Assembly: GCA_964484505.1 (NCBI GenBank) | Contig: CAZAFB010000006.1 | Span: 14,337-78,336, forward strand | DNA from: an uncultured Bdellovibrionales bacterium | GTDB taxonomy: Bacteria > Patescibacteriota > Minisyncoccia > Moranbacterales > GWC2-37-73 | Length of the DNA: 64,000 nucleotides | Direction: 5' to 3' | Part shown: positions 3,279 to 19,507 of the stretch, piece after piece | How the letters are laid out: each line of letters starts with the position of its first letter | Position numbering within the stretch: position 1 is the first letter of the stretch | Program-made: the position numbers and the translations under genes | Notes under the pieces: model-generated | What the model was told of the DNA's origin: nothing | The model's database searches: none | The model's input: the letters and a program-made list of their open reading frames with translations, nothing else

Positions 3279-4520
3279 TTATTTATTTAAAATTTTTTTA
3301 TATATCTCTTCAAATGCCTTCGTTGCAAATTCATTATAAACCAAATCGCATTTTTGGGGAGCCTCAAGAGGATACGCTTCAAATTTTCCTTTTTCATAAT
3401 AACCTTCCGGATCAATATAAACAACCACCAAACCTTTCTTGCGAGCTGCTTGATGAATTTTCCTCCTATCAGCATGCGAACCCACCACTATTAAAGACTT
3501 TGCGTTGTCGTGAAAATTAATTTTTGGAATAATATTTTCAGATTCATATTTTCTAACATAATACTCTTCAAGTCCCGCTTTTCTAATAAGACCGTCAAAA
3601 TTATTTGTTATAACAGGTCCAACTATCATTCCTTTTTTATGTAATTCTTTAATTATTTCGTGAAATTTAGTCGGTTCTGCCAGAAAACATTTCTTTTGCA
3701 TATTTGTCATTATTCTATAAGCCTCTTTCGGATTTTCAATTATATCAAATATCAAATGATCATCAGGATAACGAAAAATGGCTTTTTTCTTAATTTGATC
3801 TGTTACACAATACACTTCATGCAAATATTTCAAAGGTGGAACACCGGCCTCTATGGATGGTCCACATCCTAATTCTATTTGGGCGGGGAAAAGATCAATT
3901 ATTTTTTCTATAATATTTCCTGTAATCGGTTTTTGCTTTTTTAATTTCTGTCTAAAACCAGTTTTTAATATATACCAAGGTTTATTTTTAAAATCATCAT
4001 CAAGCGCAATCCACTCGGAGTAAACGGTTATATCCATTGAATTATATTCTTTAGGAAATAGTCTGCCTTCAGCCAAATCTGCTGGATGTTGTTTATAAAT
4101 TTTTACATCAATACGCAAATCTTCATTAACAAATTGAAGATGTTTTTTACAATTTATATTATCAACAAAATCAATCTTCCAACCATTTTGCGCACTTTCA
4201 AGCATGCAACTCTCGAGTTCATCTATCTCAGAAGAAAGTAGGCTTAAATTTATCCATAAATAACTCTCTTTAAGCACAAGATCGAATTTATGATGCTTAT
4301 TTTCTTGAATATCAAAGCAATGAAAATAATGTAACATTCTCCTCCTGCAGTCATTTGGATTTTTCCATCCGGATTCATCCTTGTTTTGTTTTTCTTGTGT
4401 TCTTCTCCAAATTCCCTCTTCCGTCCTAGGATTATGCGTTTCAGTTTCCGCATAAAAATTTTTCCACTTTTTCATTTGTTCTTCGGACAGATTCTCCAAC
4501 ACTACAAACGGAAATTTCAT
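3279..4520 (-). CDS. SIR2-like (DHS-like NAD-binding) domain protein with unknown ~200-aa N-terminal domain
   Basis: The C-terminal half carries LGCGPSIEAGVPPL (compare sirtuin GAGIS..GIPDFR), ITNNFDGLI (compare TQNIDxLH) and VVGSH...VVVYID (Rossmann end). There is no zinc-ribbon module, as in defensive prokaryotic SIR2 domains. Confidence 0.55.
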   Translation of the reverse strand: MKFPFVVLENLSEEQMKKWKNFYAETETHNPRTEEGIWRRTQEKQNKDESGWKNPNDCRRRMLHYFHCFDIQENKHHKFDLVLKESYLWINLSLLSSEIDELESCMLESAQNGWKIDFVDNINCKKHLQFVNEDLRIDVKIYKQHPADLAEGRLFPKEYNSMDITVYSEWIALDDDFKNKPWYILKTGFRQKLKKQKPITGNIIEKIIDLFPAQIELGCGPSIEAGVPPLKYLHEVYCVTDQIKKKAIFRYPDDHLIFDIIENPKEAYRIMTNMQKKCFLAEPTKFHEIIKELHKKGMIVGPVITNNFDGLIRKAGLEEYYVRKYESENIIPKINFHDNAKSLIVVGSHADRRKIHQAARKKGLVVVYIDPEGYYEKGKFEAYPLEAPQKCDLVYNEFATKAFEEIYKKILNK

Positions 4521-4598
4521 AGAAATAAACTCAAATTATAGAAAAATTATCCTTATAGCACATTACAAGCCATGTCAATATTGCTGTAAAAAAATTCG

Positions 4599-5402
4599 TT
4601 ATAATAACCCCAGCTTCTCCAAAAACCCCTTGAGTTCTCCGCCTTTGAGCGTGCGGTGTTGGCCGGGCTTGAGGCCGGCAAGTTTTATGTTCAAGATGCG
4701 TACGCGTTTGAGTGAAGTTACGCTGTAACCGAGCGCGTTACACATGCGGCGGATTTGGCGTTTTTTGCCTTCGTTCAAAATTATCGAAAAAGCGCTGGTG
4801 CGAATTTTGCGCGCTTCGCACGGACGTGTTTTATATCCGTCATCAAGCACCACACCTTTTTCCATTTTGTCGATAAATTTCTGCTCGACTTCCTTGTCGA
4901 CCGTGACCACATATTCCTTGTCATGATTGCGCTCCGGCTCCAGCAAACGACCAGTCACGCGTCCGTCATTGGTAAGCATAATCAGTCCTTCCGAATCTTT
5001 GTCTAGCCTCCCAACAGGAAACACTTTCGATTTATATTTCGAATTTGAATCTAAGTCTTTCCGCAAAGTTCCGCGTGAAGTCCGCGTAAGTCCGCGCGTA
5101 TGGGAATTTTTTAAATTCCCATACGACAATATGTCTTCAATGCTTTTTTCGTCGCCTTGCGGACTGTGCGTGATGATGCCGCGCGGCTTGTAATATGCCA
5201 AATATACAAGCTCGTTTTTTCTTTTTTGATCACCCACCACTTCCACCTTGTCATTTTCATTAACCATATCGCCCAACTTCGCTCTCTTGCCGTTAATCAA
5301 AACTTTGCCAGCCTCAAGAAGCCGGTCAGCCTCCCGCCGACTGCAAATCGCCTCATGCGCCAAATACTTATTGATTCTCGTCGGATATTTTTCTGAATTC
5401 AT
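4599..5402 (-). CDS. pseudouridine synthase, RluB/RsuA family (S4 domain plus catalytic domain)
   Basis: N-terminal S4 domain (INKYLAHEAICSRREADRLLEAGKVLING). Catalytic motif VFPVGRLDKDSEGLIMLTNDG. Confidence 0.8.
   Translation of the reverse strand: MNSEKYPTRINKYLAHEAICSRREADRLLEAGKVLINGKRAKLGDMVNENDKVEVVGDQKRKNELVYLAYYKPRGIITHSPQGDEKSIEDILSYGNLKNSHTRGLTRTSRGTLRKDLDSNSKYKSKVFPVGRLDKDSEGLIMLTNDGRVTGRLLEPERNHDKEYVVTVDKEVEQKFIDKMEKGVVLDDGYKTRPCEARKIRTSAFSIILNEGKKRQIRRMCNALGYSVTSLKRVRILNIKLAGLKPGQHRTLKGGELKGFLEKLGLL
4605..4631. repeat. 26-bp direct repeat copy 2 (overlaps the 3' end of the pseudouridine synthase gene)
   Basis: aaccccagCttctccaaaaacccctt. Confidence 0.7.
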
Positions 5403-16022: not shown

Positions 16023-16964
16023 TCAATATTTAATCAACTCATACTCTGGCTCTTCATTATTCTTCCATCCATTTATTATAAAAAAACCATCTGATTGCTT
16101 ATATAGAGACTGCTTACCATTTTCAACATTGATAATGTAAATATCTCCCTTCTCTGCATTGGGATCGCCGATGGCAGCGCCATAGACTAGTTTTTTTCCA
16201 TCTTCAGAAAGTTTTGCATCCCCAAACTGGTTATATTTTAATTTTACGTCAAATGTTTTTTTCACTTTTCCATCACGATTTAAAATTTTAATTTTTTTAT
16301 CATCATCCCCACTATTTGCAGTCATAACAAAGATAGCCTCGTCTTTAGACATATCTGTTATAAAGTTATTGACCAAAACAGCTCCATCATTAGTTTTAAT
16401 ATCAATTCCAATAATTTTTGCTATGCTATTTTCATTAAGTCTTAGTTTATAAAGAGCAACTGGACCTCCATATAAAATATATCCGCCTCTGCCAGCTATG
16501 GATATTCCAATATACAAATCGCATTCTGCTTGTTTAAATATTTCCGCATTAACCTCGTAATAGTTGCTAAAATTCTCATCCCCAACAACTTTATTATCTT
16601 TCTTGAAAACAATCCTTGTTCTTCCATTATAATAATCATATTCAAGATTGATTTTTTTGCCATTGCAAATTACTTCTTCAATTTTTGAATCATCAATCAT
16701 GGTTACGCCACCACCAGAACTATTGGCATTATCTGCTACTTGTTTATTTTCATCCTTTAATCCAATCTCGTCTTGATTTAAATAAAGTTGCTCCTCTGAT
16801 GGTTTTGGTGGCATATATTTGCTTGAAATTGTAGCCCTATCGACAGTATAAAGATAAATAAATCTAGCAGCAAAAATGGTGAGAATTAAAATAAATGTCA
16901 CAGAAAAAAATAATGTATATTTTTTAATTTTAGCCTTATCGTGATTTTCAAAAAAATCTATCAT
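16023..16964 (-). CDS. hypothetical membrane-anchored / secreted protein
   Basis: N-terminal TM helix, then a beta-rich sequence; no recognised motif. Confidence 0.4.
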   Translation of the reverse strand: MIDFFENHDKAKIKKYTLFFSVTFILILTIFAARFIYLYTVDRATISSKYMPPKPSEEQLYLNQDEIGLKDENKQVADNANSSGGGVTMIDDSKIEEVICNGKKINLEYDYYNGRTRIVFKKDNKVVGDENFSNYYEVNAEIFKQAECDLYIGISIAGRGGYILYGGPVALYKLRLNENSIAKIIGIDIKTNDGAVLVNNFITDMSKDEAIFVMTANSGDDDKKIKILNRDGKVKKTFDVKLKYNQFGDAKLSEDGKKLVYGAAIGDPNAEKGDIYIINVENGKQSLYKQSDGFFIINGWKNNEEPEYELIKY

Positions 16965-17027
16965 TTTTTAAATTTTATAAATTAATATCAATATTATAAC
17001 ATAGCCTAAACCCTCCACATTAATCAC

Positions 17028-17059
17028 AAAAAATAAGGCTACATAAAGCCTTATTTTAC
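17028..17059 (-). terminator. intrinsic terminator ending the tRNA/rpmG transcription unit
   Basis: Minus-strand RNA AAUAAGGCUUUAUGUAGCCUUAUUUUUUG. Confidence 0.55.
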
Positions 17060-17108
17060 TTGCACGGGGTGAGGGAATTTCCGCTTCCTTCGTCCGCCGT
17101 CGCGGACC
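17060..17108 (-). pseudogene. body-deleted pseudo-tRNA-Trp copy (3'-terminal 18 nt plus 5' flank only)
   Basis: tgcacggggtgagggaat is identical to 17274-17291 (tRNA-Trp 3' end), and is followed by ccttcgtccgccg..gcggac, which duplicates 17347-17368 upstream of the tRNA. The 49-nt tRNA body is missing. Confidence 0.5.
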
Positions 17109-17235
17109 CAGTTAATTGCCCTGGGCAGCGCCAAATGCTCGTCCGCATTTGTCGACGCTCACTGCGAAAATTCCCTGCTGAGAATTTTCTAGTTCGCTTC
17201 TGCCCATTCGATTCCCTTTTCACTTTCACACATAA
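17109..17235 (-). ncRNA. candidate GC-rich structured RNA 'segment 1' embedded in the tRNA operon
   Basis: Co-transcribed position. Paralogue of 17990-18176, with conserved hairpins (GAAAAUUC-UCAGCAGG-GAAUUUUC; CAAAUGC-N7-GCAUUUG) and partially compensatory changes between copies. Confidence 0.4.
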
Positions 17236-17271
17236 GCTAAAAACACACTCTGATTGGTGTGTTTTTAGCTT
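17236..17271. other. perfect 14-bp hairpin immediately 3' of tRNA-Trp
   Basis: agctaaaaacacac-tctgattg-gtgtgtttttagct. Confidence 0.5.
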
Positions 17272-17275
17272 AATG

Positions 17276-17346
17276 CACGGGGTGAGGGAATCGAACCCCC
17301 GCCAAAAGTTTTGGAGACTCTCGTTCTACCACTAAACTAACCCCGC
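17276..17346 (-). tRNA. tRNA-Trp (anticodon CCA), no encoded CCA end
   Basis: Folded by hand: acceptor GCGGGGU/ACCCCGU, anticodon loop CUCCAAA, T-loop GGUUCGAUUCC. Confidence 0.85.
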
Positions 17347-17417
17347 CTTCGTCCGCCGGAGCGGACTTCGGCGGGCAAGCCCGCATAGCCGCGAAGGCGG
17401 AATTTTCTATTTCAAAA

Positions 17418-17582
17418 TCACTTCATCTCCTTATGCAGCGTATGCTTTCTGCAGCGATTGCAGAATTTGTTCACTTCCAATTTTTCCTTGATTTTCTTCT
17501 TGTTGCGTGAAGTGTAATAATTAATTTCCTTGCATTCACTGCAACGAAGCTTCACCATATTTTCCTTAGTTTTAGTCGCCAT
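17418..17582 (-). CDS. rpmG: 50S ribosomal protein L33
   Basis: [29 protein letters not shown]...[14 protein letters not shown]; four-Cys zinc ribbon typical of L33. Confidence 0.8.
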
Positions 17583-17908
17583 GTTTGTCTGTGAGGTACG
17601 AGCAGCTACAAACATGAGCGTCCCGCACCAATTCTCTTATTAAAATCTAAATTATTTATTCACTAAGCCATAGGCGTTTCCGCGCGATAAAATGACAAAT
17701 ATCACTGACCAAATTCGGAATTTGGTGCGGGAGGCCATTCCTATTTTTTTTGTTGTCGGCTGGCAACTGCCAACAAACTTGGAGCCGCTTAGCGGGATTT
17801 CACGTCGTTATCACTCCTTGAAAACCCACGGTTTTCAAGACTTTCCTCCAACAGAAAACTCCCGTTTTCCGACCCTTTCCCTGTTCAATTCTTAACTCAA
17901 AAGAGTTG

Positions 17909-17981
17909 AGCCGTTGTGCGGGATTGAACCGCAGACCTCATCCTTACCATGGATGCGCTCTACCAACTGAGCTACAACGGC
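17909..17981 (-). tRNA. tRNA-Thr (anticodon GGU)
   Basis: GCCGUUGUAGCUCAGUUGGUAGAGCGCAUCCAUGGUAAGGAUGAGGUCUGCGGUUCAAUCCCGCACAACGGCU. Confidence 0.85.
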
Positions 17982-17989
17982 AACATATC

Positions 17990-18176
17990 AATTAACTTAT
18001 AAAAAACAGCCTCGATGGATTTCCGCGTCGCTCATTTGCCGTCGCAAACGCGCTCCTTGTCCTGGGTAGCGCCAAATCCTCGCTTGCTCGAATTTGTCGG
18101 CGTTCGCTGCGGAAATTTCCTGCTGAAAATTTTCTAGCTCACTGCCACCCGTTCGAATCCCCTTTCACTATTCATA
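17990..18176 (-). ncRNA. candidate GC-rich structured RNA 'segment 2' between tRNA-Tyr and tRNA-Thr
   Basis: About 75% identical to 17109-17235, with shared hairpins. It sits inside the polycistronic tRNA unit. Confidence 0.4.
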
Positions 18177-18221
18177 TCAATGTTTTAAATTAATGCCTTG
18201 AGAGGCATTAATTTAAAACAT
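18177..18221. other. perfect ~19-bp AT-rich hairpin immediately 3' of tRNA-Tyr
   Basis: atgttttaaattaatgcct-tgag-aggcattaatttaaaacat. Confidence 0.5.
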
Positions 18222-18225
18222 TATG

Positions 18226-18308
18226 TGGGCAGGGAGGGATTCGAACCCCCGAAGACCGAAGTCGGCTGATTTACAGTCAGCTGTAATAGACCACTCTACC
18301 ACCTACCC
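18226..18308 (-). tRNA. tRNA-Tyr (anticodon GUA), long variable arm
   Basis: GGGUAGGUGGUAGAGUGG...GCUGACUGUAAAUCAGC...GGGGGUUCGAAUCCCUCCCUGCCCA. Confidence 0.85.
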
Positions 18309-18319
18309 ATTTGGTTTAT

Positions 18320-18724
18320 TCATAAACAGCTTTCCAAGCTCTTGAAATCATCAGCTGAATGAATGTGCATTTTTTGCTTATTTTTACTAGGCTCTATTCT
18401 TAATTTAAATGTACTTCTATTAATTTCAGAAACAGGAATATAATAAATATCTCTCGTCTTCCCATTGTAAGCAGCAATAACATCTATCTCTTTATCGGAA
18501 TAGTGCAACACTGACCAATTATTACTGCTTCTGCAATTAACCTCCATCGCACCATTTTTTGGCGTGACATACTTAACTTGTATCCTGATAAATCTGCCAT
18601 CCACTTCTGCAACCAAATCATATCGATTGTTTTCCCCAATAGGCATCAACACCCTCCAACCATCCTCAATAAGACGTGCGACCACATACATTTCAGCAAT
18701 ATAGCCCTTTGTCTTTTTATTCAT
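18320..18724 (-). CDS. PD-(D/E)xK nuclease, Hjc/archaeal Holliday-junction-resolvase-like
   Basis: GYIAEMYVVARLIEDGW...YDLVAE...IRIQVKY follows the G..E(R)E...D..(E/Q)xK pattern of Hjc-like nucleases; 134 aa. Confidence 0.45.
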   Translation of the reverse strand: MNKKTKGYIAEMYVVARLIEDGWRVLMPIGENNRYDLVAEVDGRFIRIQVKYVTPKNGAMEVNCRSSNNWSVLHYSDKEIDVIAAYNGKTRDIYYIPVSEINRSTFKLRIEPSKNKQKMHIHSADDFKSLESCL

Positions 18725-18748
18725 TGTTTTATATTACCAATTTCCCTG

Positions 18749-18820
18749 AGCCGACGAAGGGATTTGAACCCATAACCTTCACTTTACAAAAGTGTTGCTC
18801 TACCGTTGAGCTACGTCGGC
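18749..18820 (-). tRNA. tRNA-Thr (anticodon UGU)
   Basis: GCCGACGUAGCUCAACGGUAGAGCAACACUUUUGUAAAGUGAAGGUUAUGGGUUCAAAUCCCUUCGUCGGCU. One U-U mismatch in the T-stem. Confidence 0.75.
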
Positions 18821-18835
18821 ACCTCCGTGACAAGC

Positions 18836-19507
18836 CTACCTCCTCGCCAACAACCTTTCCAGCTTGCGGATTTTCAATTTCACCTTGTGATGAGCCGGAC
18901 TCAGTTTCAAAACTTGCCTGTAACACTCCAAAGCATCTTTGGCATTTTCTCGATCAGAATAATAATCTCCCAATCTTTCGTACGCTTCGATATCGCGCGG
19001 ATTCATTGCAATCCTCTTTATTAAAACGTCTTCCAATTTTTCATCTACATCCACTGTTCGCTGCGGCATTGTTACTTCCTTGCGCACCATCGGCTCTATT
19101 TTGTTTTCCCGCGGCGTCCTGGAAAAAATTTCCCCTATTCTGTCTTCCTTCAGTGGTCTTGCTTGCATCACACCCTCAGCTTCCTCTTTTTCCGACATTT
19201 CAACTTCCTGACGCTCCGCCTTGGCCGCATCACGCTTAGCCCTAATAGAACGAACCCAGTCATTGCTCGTATTGTGAAAACGGAGTGACATCAGCTTAGC
19301 TCTGCGAATAATCCATTCGGCAATAGCCAGAAAAAAATGGCCAATAACCGAAAAAAACCTGCGGAATTTGCTTCCGTAAAAACTTTTCGCTTGGACGTTT
19401 TGTCCGATTGGCATTTCCCCGATCAAAGCCGCCTTGCGGAAAATGAACCAAATCAAGAGCGAAAGACTTACAACTATTATAATTGGTGGCACTATATAAT
19501 ATAACAT
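18836..19507 (-). CDS. membrane-anchored TPR-repeat protein
   Basis: N-terminal TM helices. C-terminal TPR-like AYERLGDYYSDRENAKDALECYRQVLKL. Confidence 0.45.
   Translation of the reverse strand: MLYYIVPPIIIVVSLSLLIWFIFRKAALIGEMPIGQNVQAKSFYGSKFRRFFSVIGHFFLAIAEWIIRRAKLMSLRFHNTSNDWVRSIRAKRDAAKAERQEVEMSEKEEAEGVMQARPLKEDRIGEIFSRTPRENKIEPMVRKEVTMPQRTVDVDEKLEDVLIKRIAMNPRDIEAYERLGDYYSDRENAKDALECYRQVLKLSPAHHKVKLKIRKLERLLARR

Follow-up and report, generated by a model that had tools for sequence, protein, structure and literature searches.

A tRNA operon from the candidate phyla radiation (CPR) contains two related noncoding segments, which we call units W1 and W2, each behind a tRNA gene. We studied them in a window of 64,000 nt (contig CAZAFB010000006.1 of assembly GCA_964484505.1, positions 14,337 to 78,336) from an uncultured Moraniibacteriota bacterium. 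We conclude that the two segments are copies of a structured RNA element, here called family A, that in Candidatus Moraniibacteriota resides at the 3' ends of tRNA genes and has a layout like that of the RtT repeats of the Escherichia coli tyrT operon. We put the probability of this reading at roughly 60%. As a family of structured RNA elements, family A itself is real; Rfam lacks it, and to the extent of our searches it has not been described.

Extent, fold, and tRNA-derived ends of W1 and W2

All features of the operon (17030-18820) lie on the minus strand. Their order is tRNA-Thr(tgt), a PD-(D/E)XK endonuclease open reading frame (ORF), tRNA-Tyr, a hairpin, W2, tRNA-Thr(ggt), a noncoding stretch, rpmG, a GC-rich spacer, tRNA-Trp, a second hairpin, W1, a copy of the tRNA-Trp 3' end, and a terminator. 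We called the tRNA genes with ARAGORN and Rfam. The host tRNA of W2 is tRNA-Tyr(gta) at 18225-18308 (57 bits with the Rfam tRNA model), and that of W1 is tRNA-Trp(cca) at 17275-17346. An earlier reading, made from the sequence only, had placed the segments after tRNA-Trp and between tRNA-Tyr and tRNA-Thr, upstream of the operon terminator. ARAGORN, Rfam, and a terminator scan (17057-17030) bear this out.

To delimit the units, we used a covariance model, R1, built from the alignment of the family. Run over the whole window with filters off, R1 found exactly two copies and no other match above 13 bits. Unit W2 lies at 18007-18172 (151 bits, E = 6e-37) and comprises the segments X', P2, P3, P4, and P5 and a degenerate 3' tRNA copy; unit W1 lies at 17061-17227 (136 bits, E = 5e-33). 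Rfam has no family for either copy: at gathering threshold only tRNAs were returned for the window, and at E ≤ 10 the stretch 16900-18900 gave tRNAs and chance matches of the microRNA type. The two units are collinear, with 74.4% identity over the model-defined units (17065-17227 and 18007-18172). Their GC content reaches 53-57%, against a window mean of 40%.

The sequence-only reading had described the segments as paralogous structured RNAs of about 75% identity, not plain spacers, with hairpins conserved through partly compensatory changes. The identity agrees with ours (78% locally, within its own coordinates), the hairpins that it quoted are present in our folds with stems that covary across 20 members, and the fold is common to 18 further copies in other genomes. 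It was right that both segments are present, but their ends had to be redrawn. Its end for the first segment, 17109, cuts away P5 together with the closing helix's 3' strand, and we therefore extended W1 to 17061; the end of the second segment was corrected to about 18007. It did not note the inverted tRNA copy at the 5' ends of the units, the likeness to RtT, or a third element, element B, that we describe below.

Each unit folds as a three-way junction. The inverted tRNA copy at the 5' end (X') and the direct tRNA copy at the 3' end (X) pair as the closing helix P1, inside which lie helix P2, enclosing P3 and P4, and the hairpin P5. The helices covary. Counted on the sequence of W1 (minus strand), X' occupies 17207-17217, P2 pairs 17200-17205 with 17123-17128, P3 lies at 17166-17189, P4 at 17132-17151, and P5 at 17092-17107, and the 3' strand of P1 is at 17073-17078.

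The direct copy at the 3' end of a unit corresponds to the host tRNA from about position 58 in the T-loop to the end of the gene, and the 5' end of the unit is an inverted copy of that same segment. In W1 the direct copy is exact: the 18 nt at 17061-17078 (AUUCCCUCACCCCGUGCA) are identical to 17274-17291, tRNA-Trp positions 58 to about 75, as the sequence-only reading had already observed. The X' of W1 (17207-17217) is an 11-nt perfect reverse complement of the tRNA-Trp T-arm at 17285-17295. Likewise, the 11 nt of X' in W2 (18151-18161, minus strand) match the reverse complement of the tRNA-Tyr T-loop and T-stem (18236-18246) perfectly. The X' sequences thus track the difference between the two T-loops, GAUU in tRNA-Trp versus GAAU in tRNA-Tyr. 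Beyond these 11 nt, a degenerate antisense to tRNA-Tyr runs on in W2 to about 18178, with 20 matches, 4 transitions, and 1 transversion against the version of tRNA-Tyr found in relatives. In W1 the next 13 nt, read without gaps, give 7 matches and 6 transitions. The direct copy of the tRNA-Tyr 3' end in W2 is degenerate, with 10 matches.

We found the same ends in other genomes, whose loci we number L004, L009, and so on. Every full unit ends in ...GCGGAAAU, followed by the T-stem and acceptor 3' strand of its own host tRNA, and this holds for six different tRNAs. At L072, the 3' end of tRNA-Gln (1994-2015) is followed by 15 nt and then by a perfect 22-nt reverse complement that opens the first unit; later units of that array open with tRNA-Gln antisense that is identical or varies by 1-3 bases. 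The tRNA-Gln-specific ends are common to units of different body subtype within one array. Across units, the perfect antisense to the neighbouring tRNA spans 11-23 nt. X' carries an A at the G50-U64 wobble pair of tRNA-Gln. Therefore, X' is antisense of the tRNA 3' strand and not a sense copy of the 5' strands. The X' of L054 lacks the second C of CCA, which indicates that it was copied from the gene or the precursor and not from the mature tRNA. Terminal units have a perfect direct copy and then a second hairpin terminator. The perfect copies extend over 18/18 positions in the window, 18/18 in L081, 17/17 in L056, and 15/15 in L084, the latter three read from the sequence.

An antisense segment of this kind might be a guide, pairing with tRNA 3' halves or tRNA genes either to control tRNA maturation or, in homing, to steer a nuclease or recombinase. 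The 11-23 nt of perfect antisense are better conserved than the unit bodies within arrays, homing-endonuclease-like ORFs occur in the same operon, and in the thermodynamic fold of the whole tRNA-Trp transcript the X segment of the tRNA pairs with X'. However, the antisense has decayed to 11 nt in the older copies W1 and W2, X' is normally sequestered in P1 by the direct copy, and the units have no conserved protein gene beside them. We consider a guide function improbable. For a structured element of family A, the preference of the whole-transcript fold for X:X' leads us to speculate that the direct copy may sequester X' and protect the folding of the tRNA. The hairpin behind the tRNA, X, and X' together form one long palindrome.

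The sequence-only reading had interpreted the junction behind W1 as a tRNA-Trp duplicate that had lost its body and was fused to a copy of the tRNA's 5' flank. If the events were local, the tRNA-Trp region would have been duplicated and its tRNA body deleted, and segment 2 would be a second local duplicate; this would explain the 18-nt exact copy and a 13-nt exact match to the 5' flank of tRNA-Trp. A resemblance to the flank does exist (27 nt at 70%, with the 13-nt exact core), but the piece in common is the P5 hairpin of the element, which has a partial older copy upstream of tRNA-Trp. The GC-rich 70-nt spacer between rpmG and tRNA-Trp (17347-17416, minus strand) holds two family-A fragments, and these explain the supposed flank copy. 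They are GAAAUAGAAAAUUC, which is the 5' strand of P3, and a P5-type hairpin, GUCCGC..GCGGACGAAGG, which ends in GAAGG and runs into the 5' end of tRNA-Trp. Moreover, the same unit with the same 3' junction (GCGGAAAU, then the tRNA end) lies beside Pro, Gln, Lys, Ser, and Tyr tRNAs elsewhere. The junction is the canonical 3' end of a unit and not a body-deleted tRNA, and a local duplication is the explanation to which we give the least credence.

The family in Moraniibacteriota and its empty and filled sites

At E < 1e-5, R1 finds 20 units, in the window and at L004, L009, L028, L054, L056, L065, L072, L081, L084, and L086. A pattern scan of species-representative genomes gave two true relatives, L004 and L009, both metagenome-assembled genomes labelled Candidatus Moraniibacteriota. 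A pattern scan of metagenomes added L028, L054, L056, L059, L065, and L072; its remaining matches were chance antisense-tRNA matches. The names Moranbacteria or Moraniibacteriota are also found on L33 homologs and on the neighbour protein of L028. The units are about 140-190 nt long; some stand alone, and others form arrays of at most five. The arrays behind tRNA-Gln, tRNA-Pro, and tRNA-Lys in L072, L028, L004, and L054 have 2-5 units. The host tRNAs are Pro (L004), Gln (L028 and L072), Lys (L054), Ser (L056), and Tyr and Trp (the window, L081, and L084). Units that adjoin a tRNA are all co-oriented with it, and three units (L009, L065, and unit 3 of L028) have no adjoining tRNA. We found no description of such elements in CPR bacteria in the literature that we searched.

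The fold is conserved through compensatory change. In a 15-sequence alignment, RNAalifold showed such changes in 13 of the 19 predicted pairs. With P1 included, 85.6% of the cells are paired, compared with 37-47% when the partners are slid; on the 20-unit alignment the values are 85.7% and 36-45%. Double changes were seen in 16-17 pairs, and none of 500 shuffles reached the covariation score (0/500). The columns of P1 are 73% paired across the family. The insert carries no conserved ORF. No conserved protein gene adjoins the units, the genes downstream are unrelated from locus to locus, and no integrase lies in or beside any unit.

Several units contain smaller changes of their own. Several units carry, in P4 or P3, an inserted palindrome of 20 nt, CCTGCCTACCGGCAGGCAGG (L004 at about 3770-3790 and 3596-3616, L054 at about 4584-4605, and L056 at about 4115-4134). 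It is also present in L088 at 2681-2700, within a duplicated tRNA-Tyr 3' fragment, and it appears to be a separately spreading mini-hairpin. The final units of arrays are shortened and run into the start of the downstream gene (L004 at about 3480-3529, L028 at about 470-520, and L054 at 4675-4720). In L004 the unit fragment provides AAGGAG 8 nt before the ATG.

We then located syntenic loci through L33 homologs, with the order rpsB-tsf-PSP1-TPR-tRNAs-rpmG-tRNA-Trp. Among these relatives, the sites of W1 and W2 are empty or are occupied by another subtype or another body type. L081 has family-A units at both the Tyr and the Trp site. In L084 the Tyr site holds a family-A unit and the Trp site a different body. 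L087 is empty at both: its tRNA-Tyr lies 42 nt from tRNA-Thr, and a terminator lies directly behind its tRNA-Trp. In L083 and L091 the Trp site is empty, tRNA-Trp being followed directly by the terminator. The filled sites (L081, L084, and window 17057-17030) have a homolog of the L083 terminator (AAAACAAGGCU...AGCCUUGUUUUU) as their second terminator. This homology defines the insert as the hairpin, X', the body, and a single X copy, about 213 nt in all. Each copy of the element stands between an intact tRNA gene and the sequence that originally followed it. Since syntenic relatives have empty sites, the units are insertions or can be deleted precisely. Thus, of the duplication or integration whose footprint the sequence-only reading had seen here, insertion at a tRNA gene stands, whereas local segmental duplication is contradicted by the distribution of the family. 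Copies at the same site are 70% (W1 and L081-Trp) and 63% (W2 and L081-Tyr) identical, and W1 and W2 are 74% identical. The Tyr unit of L081 has its UCAGCAG hairpin at P5, not P3. That same-site copies are no closer than the paralogs of the window, together with this shift, suggests conversion or re-invasion.

We asked whether the units could be ordinary host small RNA (sRNA) genes, trans-acting or tRNA-related regulators that pass vertically with their tRNA operons and have disappeared from some lineages, with the tRNA-like ends as processing handles. The covarying structure, the constant co-orientation with tRNAs, and the terminal direct copies that stay perfect while neighbouring sequence decays would all suit such genes. 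In addition, rtT of E. coli is treated as an sRNA with a proposed role in stress, its function still being called unknown (10.1101/2024.07.17.603846). This explanation does not fit well with the patchy presence of units at orthologous sites in close relatives or with the occupation of one site by different subtypes or body types. Nor does it fit with tandem arrays of up to five units, six host tRNAs each with matching ends, and downstream genes that are mutually unrelated. We regard host sRNA genes as unlikely, although they are the strongest of the competing explanations.

A second possibility was that the units are attL/attR remnants, with a decayed interior, of integrase elements in the tRNA T-loop, mobilisable in cis by an integrase whose gene lies elsewhere. 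The tRNA att sites of the T-loop class are marked by a direct repeat that reaches from the T-loop to the 3' end and by regeneration of the tRNA, and the units show this repeat beside an intact tRNA. Recombinase and transposase genes also occur near the same operon in L088. However, the interior of the units is not decayed but is a conserved, covarying fold, integrases in or beside the units were not found, an inverted tRNA copy is not expected from simple integration, and the viral contigs that we scanned held no family-A copies. Such remnants are, in our view, quite unlikely. At L088 itself, positions 2642-2715 hold a 38-nt direct duplication of the 3' part of tRNA-Tyr, from the variable arm to the 3' end, 34 nt behind the tRNA; genes for an IS1595-type transposase and a large serine recombinase are in the vicinity.

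For an RtT-like element, we propose the following course of events. The units would be transcribed within the tRNA operon; W2 must be co-transcribed, since it lies between two tRNAs with no intervening terminator. Release could be by tRNA-processing nucleases: RNase P would act at the next tRNA, and the tRNA-like P1 and tail would be the site of 3' processing. The annotated rttR RNA of E. coli ends at the CCA of its tRNA-end copy, which suggests this second step. The long AT-rich hairpin is a possible RNase III site. Arrays might grow, shrink, and vanish precisely by recombination between the tRNA-end repeats. The element would then be a self-propagating, largely dispensable passenger whose fold may be needed for harmless processing or for its own spread.

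Element B, neighbouring features, and rejected identities

A second body type, element B, lies behind tRNA-Thr(ggt) at 17782-17907 on the minus strand. It shares the layout of family A: a short hairpin is followed by an antisense T-loop (GAAUUGAAC) and a structured body, and then by a copy of the tRNA-Thr 3' end that matches at 15/20 positions (17782-17801). The body (GGAA(A)GGGUCGGAAA(A)CGGGAG...) resembles the unit behind tRNA-Trp in L084 (about 3436-3565). In L081, tRNA-Thr directly precedes the sequence that follows the repeat of element B in the window, and element B is therefore an insertion. The R1 scan of the window did not detect it. The sequence GGAGGAAAGUC in element B resembles conserved region I of RNase P RNA, but we rejected this identity, as Rfam gave no match.

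The remaining features of the operon, all on the minus strand, are as follows. tRNA-Thr(tgt) lies at 18748-18820, and tRNA-Thr(ggt), the tRNA after W2 and the host of element B, at 17908-17981; both were called by ARAGORN and Rfam. The noncoding stretch from tRNA-Thr(ggt) to the rpmG ORF (17418-17582) is about 325 nt long. The intrinsic terminator at 17030-17057 is the only terminator-like site on this strand of the operon. A perfect 20-bp AT-rich hairpin separates tRNA-Tyr from W2 (18179-18222), and a perfect 16-bp hairpin separates tRNA-Trp from W1 (17233-17272). We rejected both hairpins as terminators, as they have no U-tract and the terminator scan did not flag them.

Just upstream of rpmG, at 17618-17735, about 90 nt are enclosed by a long-range inverted repeat of 14 nt with 93% complementarity. 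This stretch is missing in the shorter Thr-rpmG spacers of L081, L084, and L087, and it could be a further insert or a leader of the L33 gene. The PD-(D/E)XK endonuclease ORF, at 18320-18724 between tRNA-Thr(tgt) and tRNA-Tyr, is polymorphic in syntenic relatives: some have a PD-(D/E)XK ORF (PF11645) and others a GIY-YIG ORF in the comparison, which covers L081, L088, L090, L091, and L093, and the ORF is absent in L084, L087, L089, and L092. The ORF is free-standing and has the look of a homing-endonuclease gene within a tRNA cluster. Exact protein look-ups for a neighbouring 313-aa gene returned only identical sequences from the same population; the identical locus is present in JGI 3300022663, 3300022664, and 3300022666 and in SRR6476074-76.

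Several other identities were considered for the units and set aside. The 5' GGAUUCGA(A)CGGG and the 3' GACGCGG.. resemble the ends of tmRNA. ARAGORN found none, and weak permuted-tmRNA matches in Rfam (E = 0.4-0.65) fall on the tRNA parts alone. A relic of a group I intron was rejected, since no intron model matched at E ≤ 10 and the upstream tRNAs are complete; tRNA group I introns of Patescibacteria sit in the anticodon loop (PMC13011429). A cis-regulatory leader or a toxin-antitoxin-type array was rejected because the downstream genes are unrelated (ATPase, glyoxalase-like, methyltransferase, nitroreductase-like, and others). A small ORF was suggested by AAGGAG in the P2-P5 junction, but no conserved start codon follows the motif, and W1 lacks it. 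Finally, a phage origin was rejected, as scans of viral contigs gave no family-A copy and one pattern matched an unrelated hairpin repeat. That repeat, GTCATTGCGAGGAGCGAAGCGACGNNGCAATCC, is abundant in viral contigs (L102-L159), with 58 matches against about 3 expected by chance on a rough estimate. It contains the motif GAGCGAAGCGACG..AATCC, and its loop is similar to the 3' junction of RtT.

Comparison with RtT and other known systems

We compared family A with several kinds of known elements. Integrative elements of the T-loop class also insert at the tRNA 3' end, repeat the stretch between T-loop and gene end directly, and restore an intact tRNA. Family A differs from them in its size of about 200 nt, its lack of an integrase, the conserved RNA fold inside, and the extra inverted copy of the target. 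[quoted passage not shown] In contrast, the terminal repeats of family A copy the neighbouring tRNA and vary by site instead of being specific to the element. Its flanking repeat is 15-19 nt of tRNA and not a short target duplication, and its copies are divergent (74%) with compensatory changes, not near-identical. The 3'ETS-leuZ RNA of E. coli and RNAs of the mascRNA type resemble family A in originating from tRNA precursors, with ends set by tRNA-processing enzymes. However, they are not repeated, are not polymorphic for insertion, and do not carry copies of the tRNA end in both orientations.

The closest likeness is to RtT (RF00391, gene rttR), the 178-bp repeats of the tyrT operon. We had noted this analogy before an Rfam E-value scan of the relatives returned RF00391. 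Units of both kinds, single or tandem, lie directly behind a tRNA and share its operon and orientation. Both end by copying the tRNA's last ~19 nt directly, from the T-loop onward, and in both an antisense of the T-stem and acceptor 3' strand at the start of the unit pairs with this copy and closes the fold. The closing helix P1 of family A is the same helix as in the consensus of the RtT model. W1 and W2 have the position (behind tRNA-Trp and tRNA-Tyr), the direct copy (exact in W1, degenerate in W2), and the antisense closing helix. At the E. coli K-12 locus, each of the four RtT units opens with GGGGAAGGAU, which is antisense of tRNA-Tyr positions 59-68, and has at its other end GGAGCGAAGCGACGAAUA, or a sequence close to it, and then the 3'-terminal 19 nt of tRNA-Tyr, CCA included. 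As a control, these units scored 133-138 bits with RF00391. The best relative with this model was L028:309-457, which matched over the full model length at 30.1 bits (gathering threshold, 45), with E = 0.044 for 34 kb against 4227 families and E = 0.0005 for the 391-nt stretch.

An alignment shows the RtT units of E. coli and the short units of Moraniibacteriota to be collinear. Motifs common to both are (U)GAGAAC, or UUCGAAC in most units, then GAGCGAAAGCGAGA and GGAGCGAAGCGACG..AAUCC. Helix P2 has the same place in both with all pairs changed (CUUCG/CGAAG versus GGCAG/CUGCC). Family A differs in being larger, with the extra hairpins P3 and P5; in having six host tRNAs instead of tRNA-Tyr alone; in lacking a tpr-like ORF; in often having a long perfect hairpin between the tRNA and the unit; and in its host, CPR bacteria versus Enterobacteria. 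The tRNA-end copy of family A has no CCA because these tRNA genes do not encode it. The E. coli rtT varies in copy number, with 1-14 places per genome and about 13% of genomes without any.

A number of points weigh against the reading of family A as an RtT-like element. Searched with RF00391 at E ≤ 10, the stretch 16900-18900 gave no RtT match, and the gathering threshold of 45 bits was reached neither by the window copies nor by the best relative. R1 does pick out all four E. coli units, on the minus strand, at just 4-6 bits, and nhmmer comparisons of the family with RtT were not significant in either direction (E = 0.3-2). The likeness may be convergence, or it may come from tRNA-derived ends in common together with GCGA-rich motifs. 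P1 of W2 is weak, with 5 outer pairs noncanonical. Counting G-U against A-C in the helices (about 12 versus 10) does not by itself decide the strand; the minus strand is favoured by the U-G pair that W1 and W2 have in their P3 stems and by the operon context, and by nothing further. Our sampling is bounded by the search pattern, and every confirmed copy comes from one candidate phylum. The pattern of empty and filled sites could reflect loss only. That the units yield stable RNAs we infer solely from covariation and position in the operon. Lastly, we know of no enzyme or mechanism that copies the end of a target tRNA in both orientations.

On balance, the architecture of family A is the same as that of RtT, and a common ancestry is tentative. 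A wider proposal is that RtT and family A, and perhaps element B, form one widespread, unrecognised class that colonises tRNA 3' ends by copying the 3' end of its target both ways. The copying would possibly be RNA-templated or fold-back-templated and would yield structured RNAs that mimic tRNA. We regard this proposal as doubtful. To our knowledge, the tyrT repeats and rtT RNA have so far been treated as an isolated enterobacterial feature. With the same kind of architecture in a CPR bacterium of reduced genome, behind six tRNAs, with ends that track each tRNA, with empty and filled sites in relatives, and with at least two body types, the E. coli case becomes a possible class, and tRNA-tail elements of the RtT kind may be far more widespread than known. 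Such units inflate the "spacers" of CPR tRNA operons and can pass for tRNA pseudogenes. If there is one class, the 45-year-old tyrT repeats would be explained, together with a new mode of target-templated mobility. This raises the questions of how a tRNA 3' end is copied both ways beside its gene and whether the tRNA-mimicking helix that family A and RtT have in common serves processing, CCA addition, or the recruitment of proteins.

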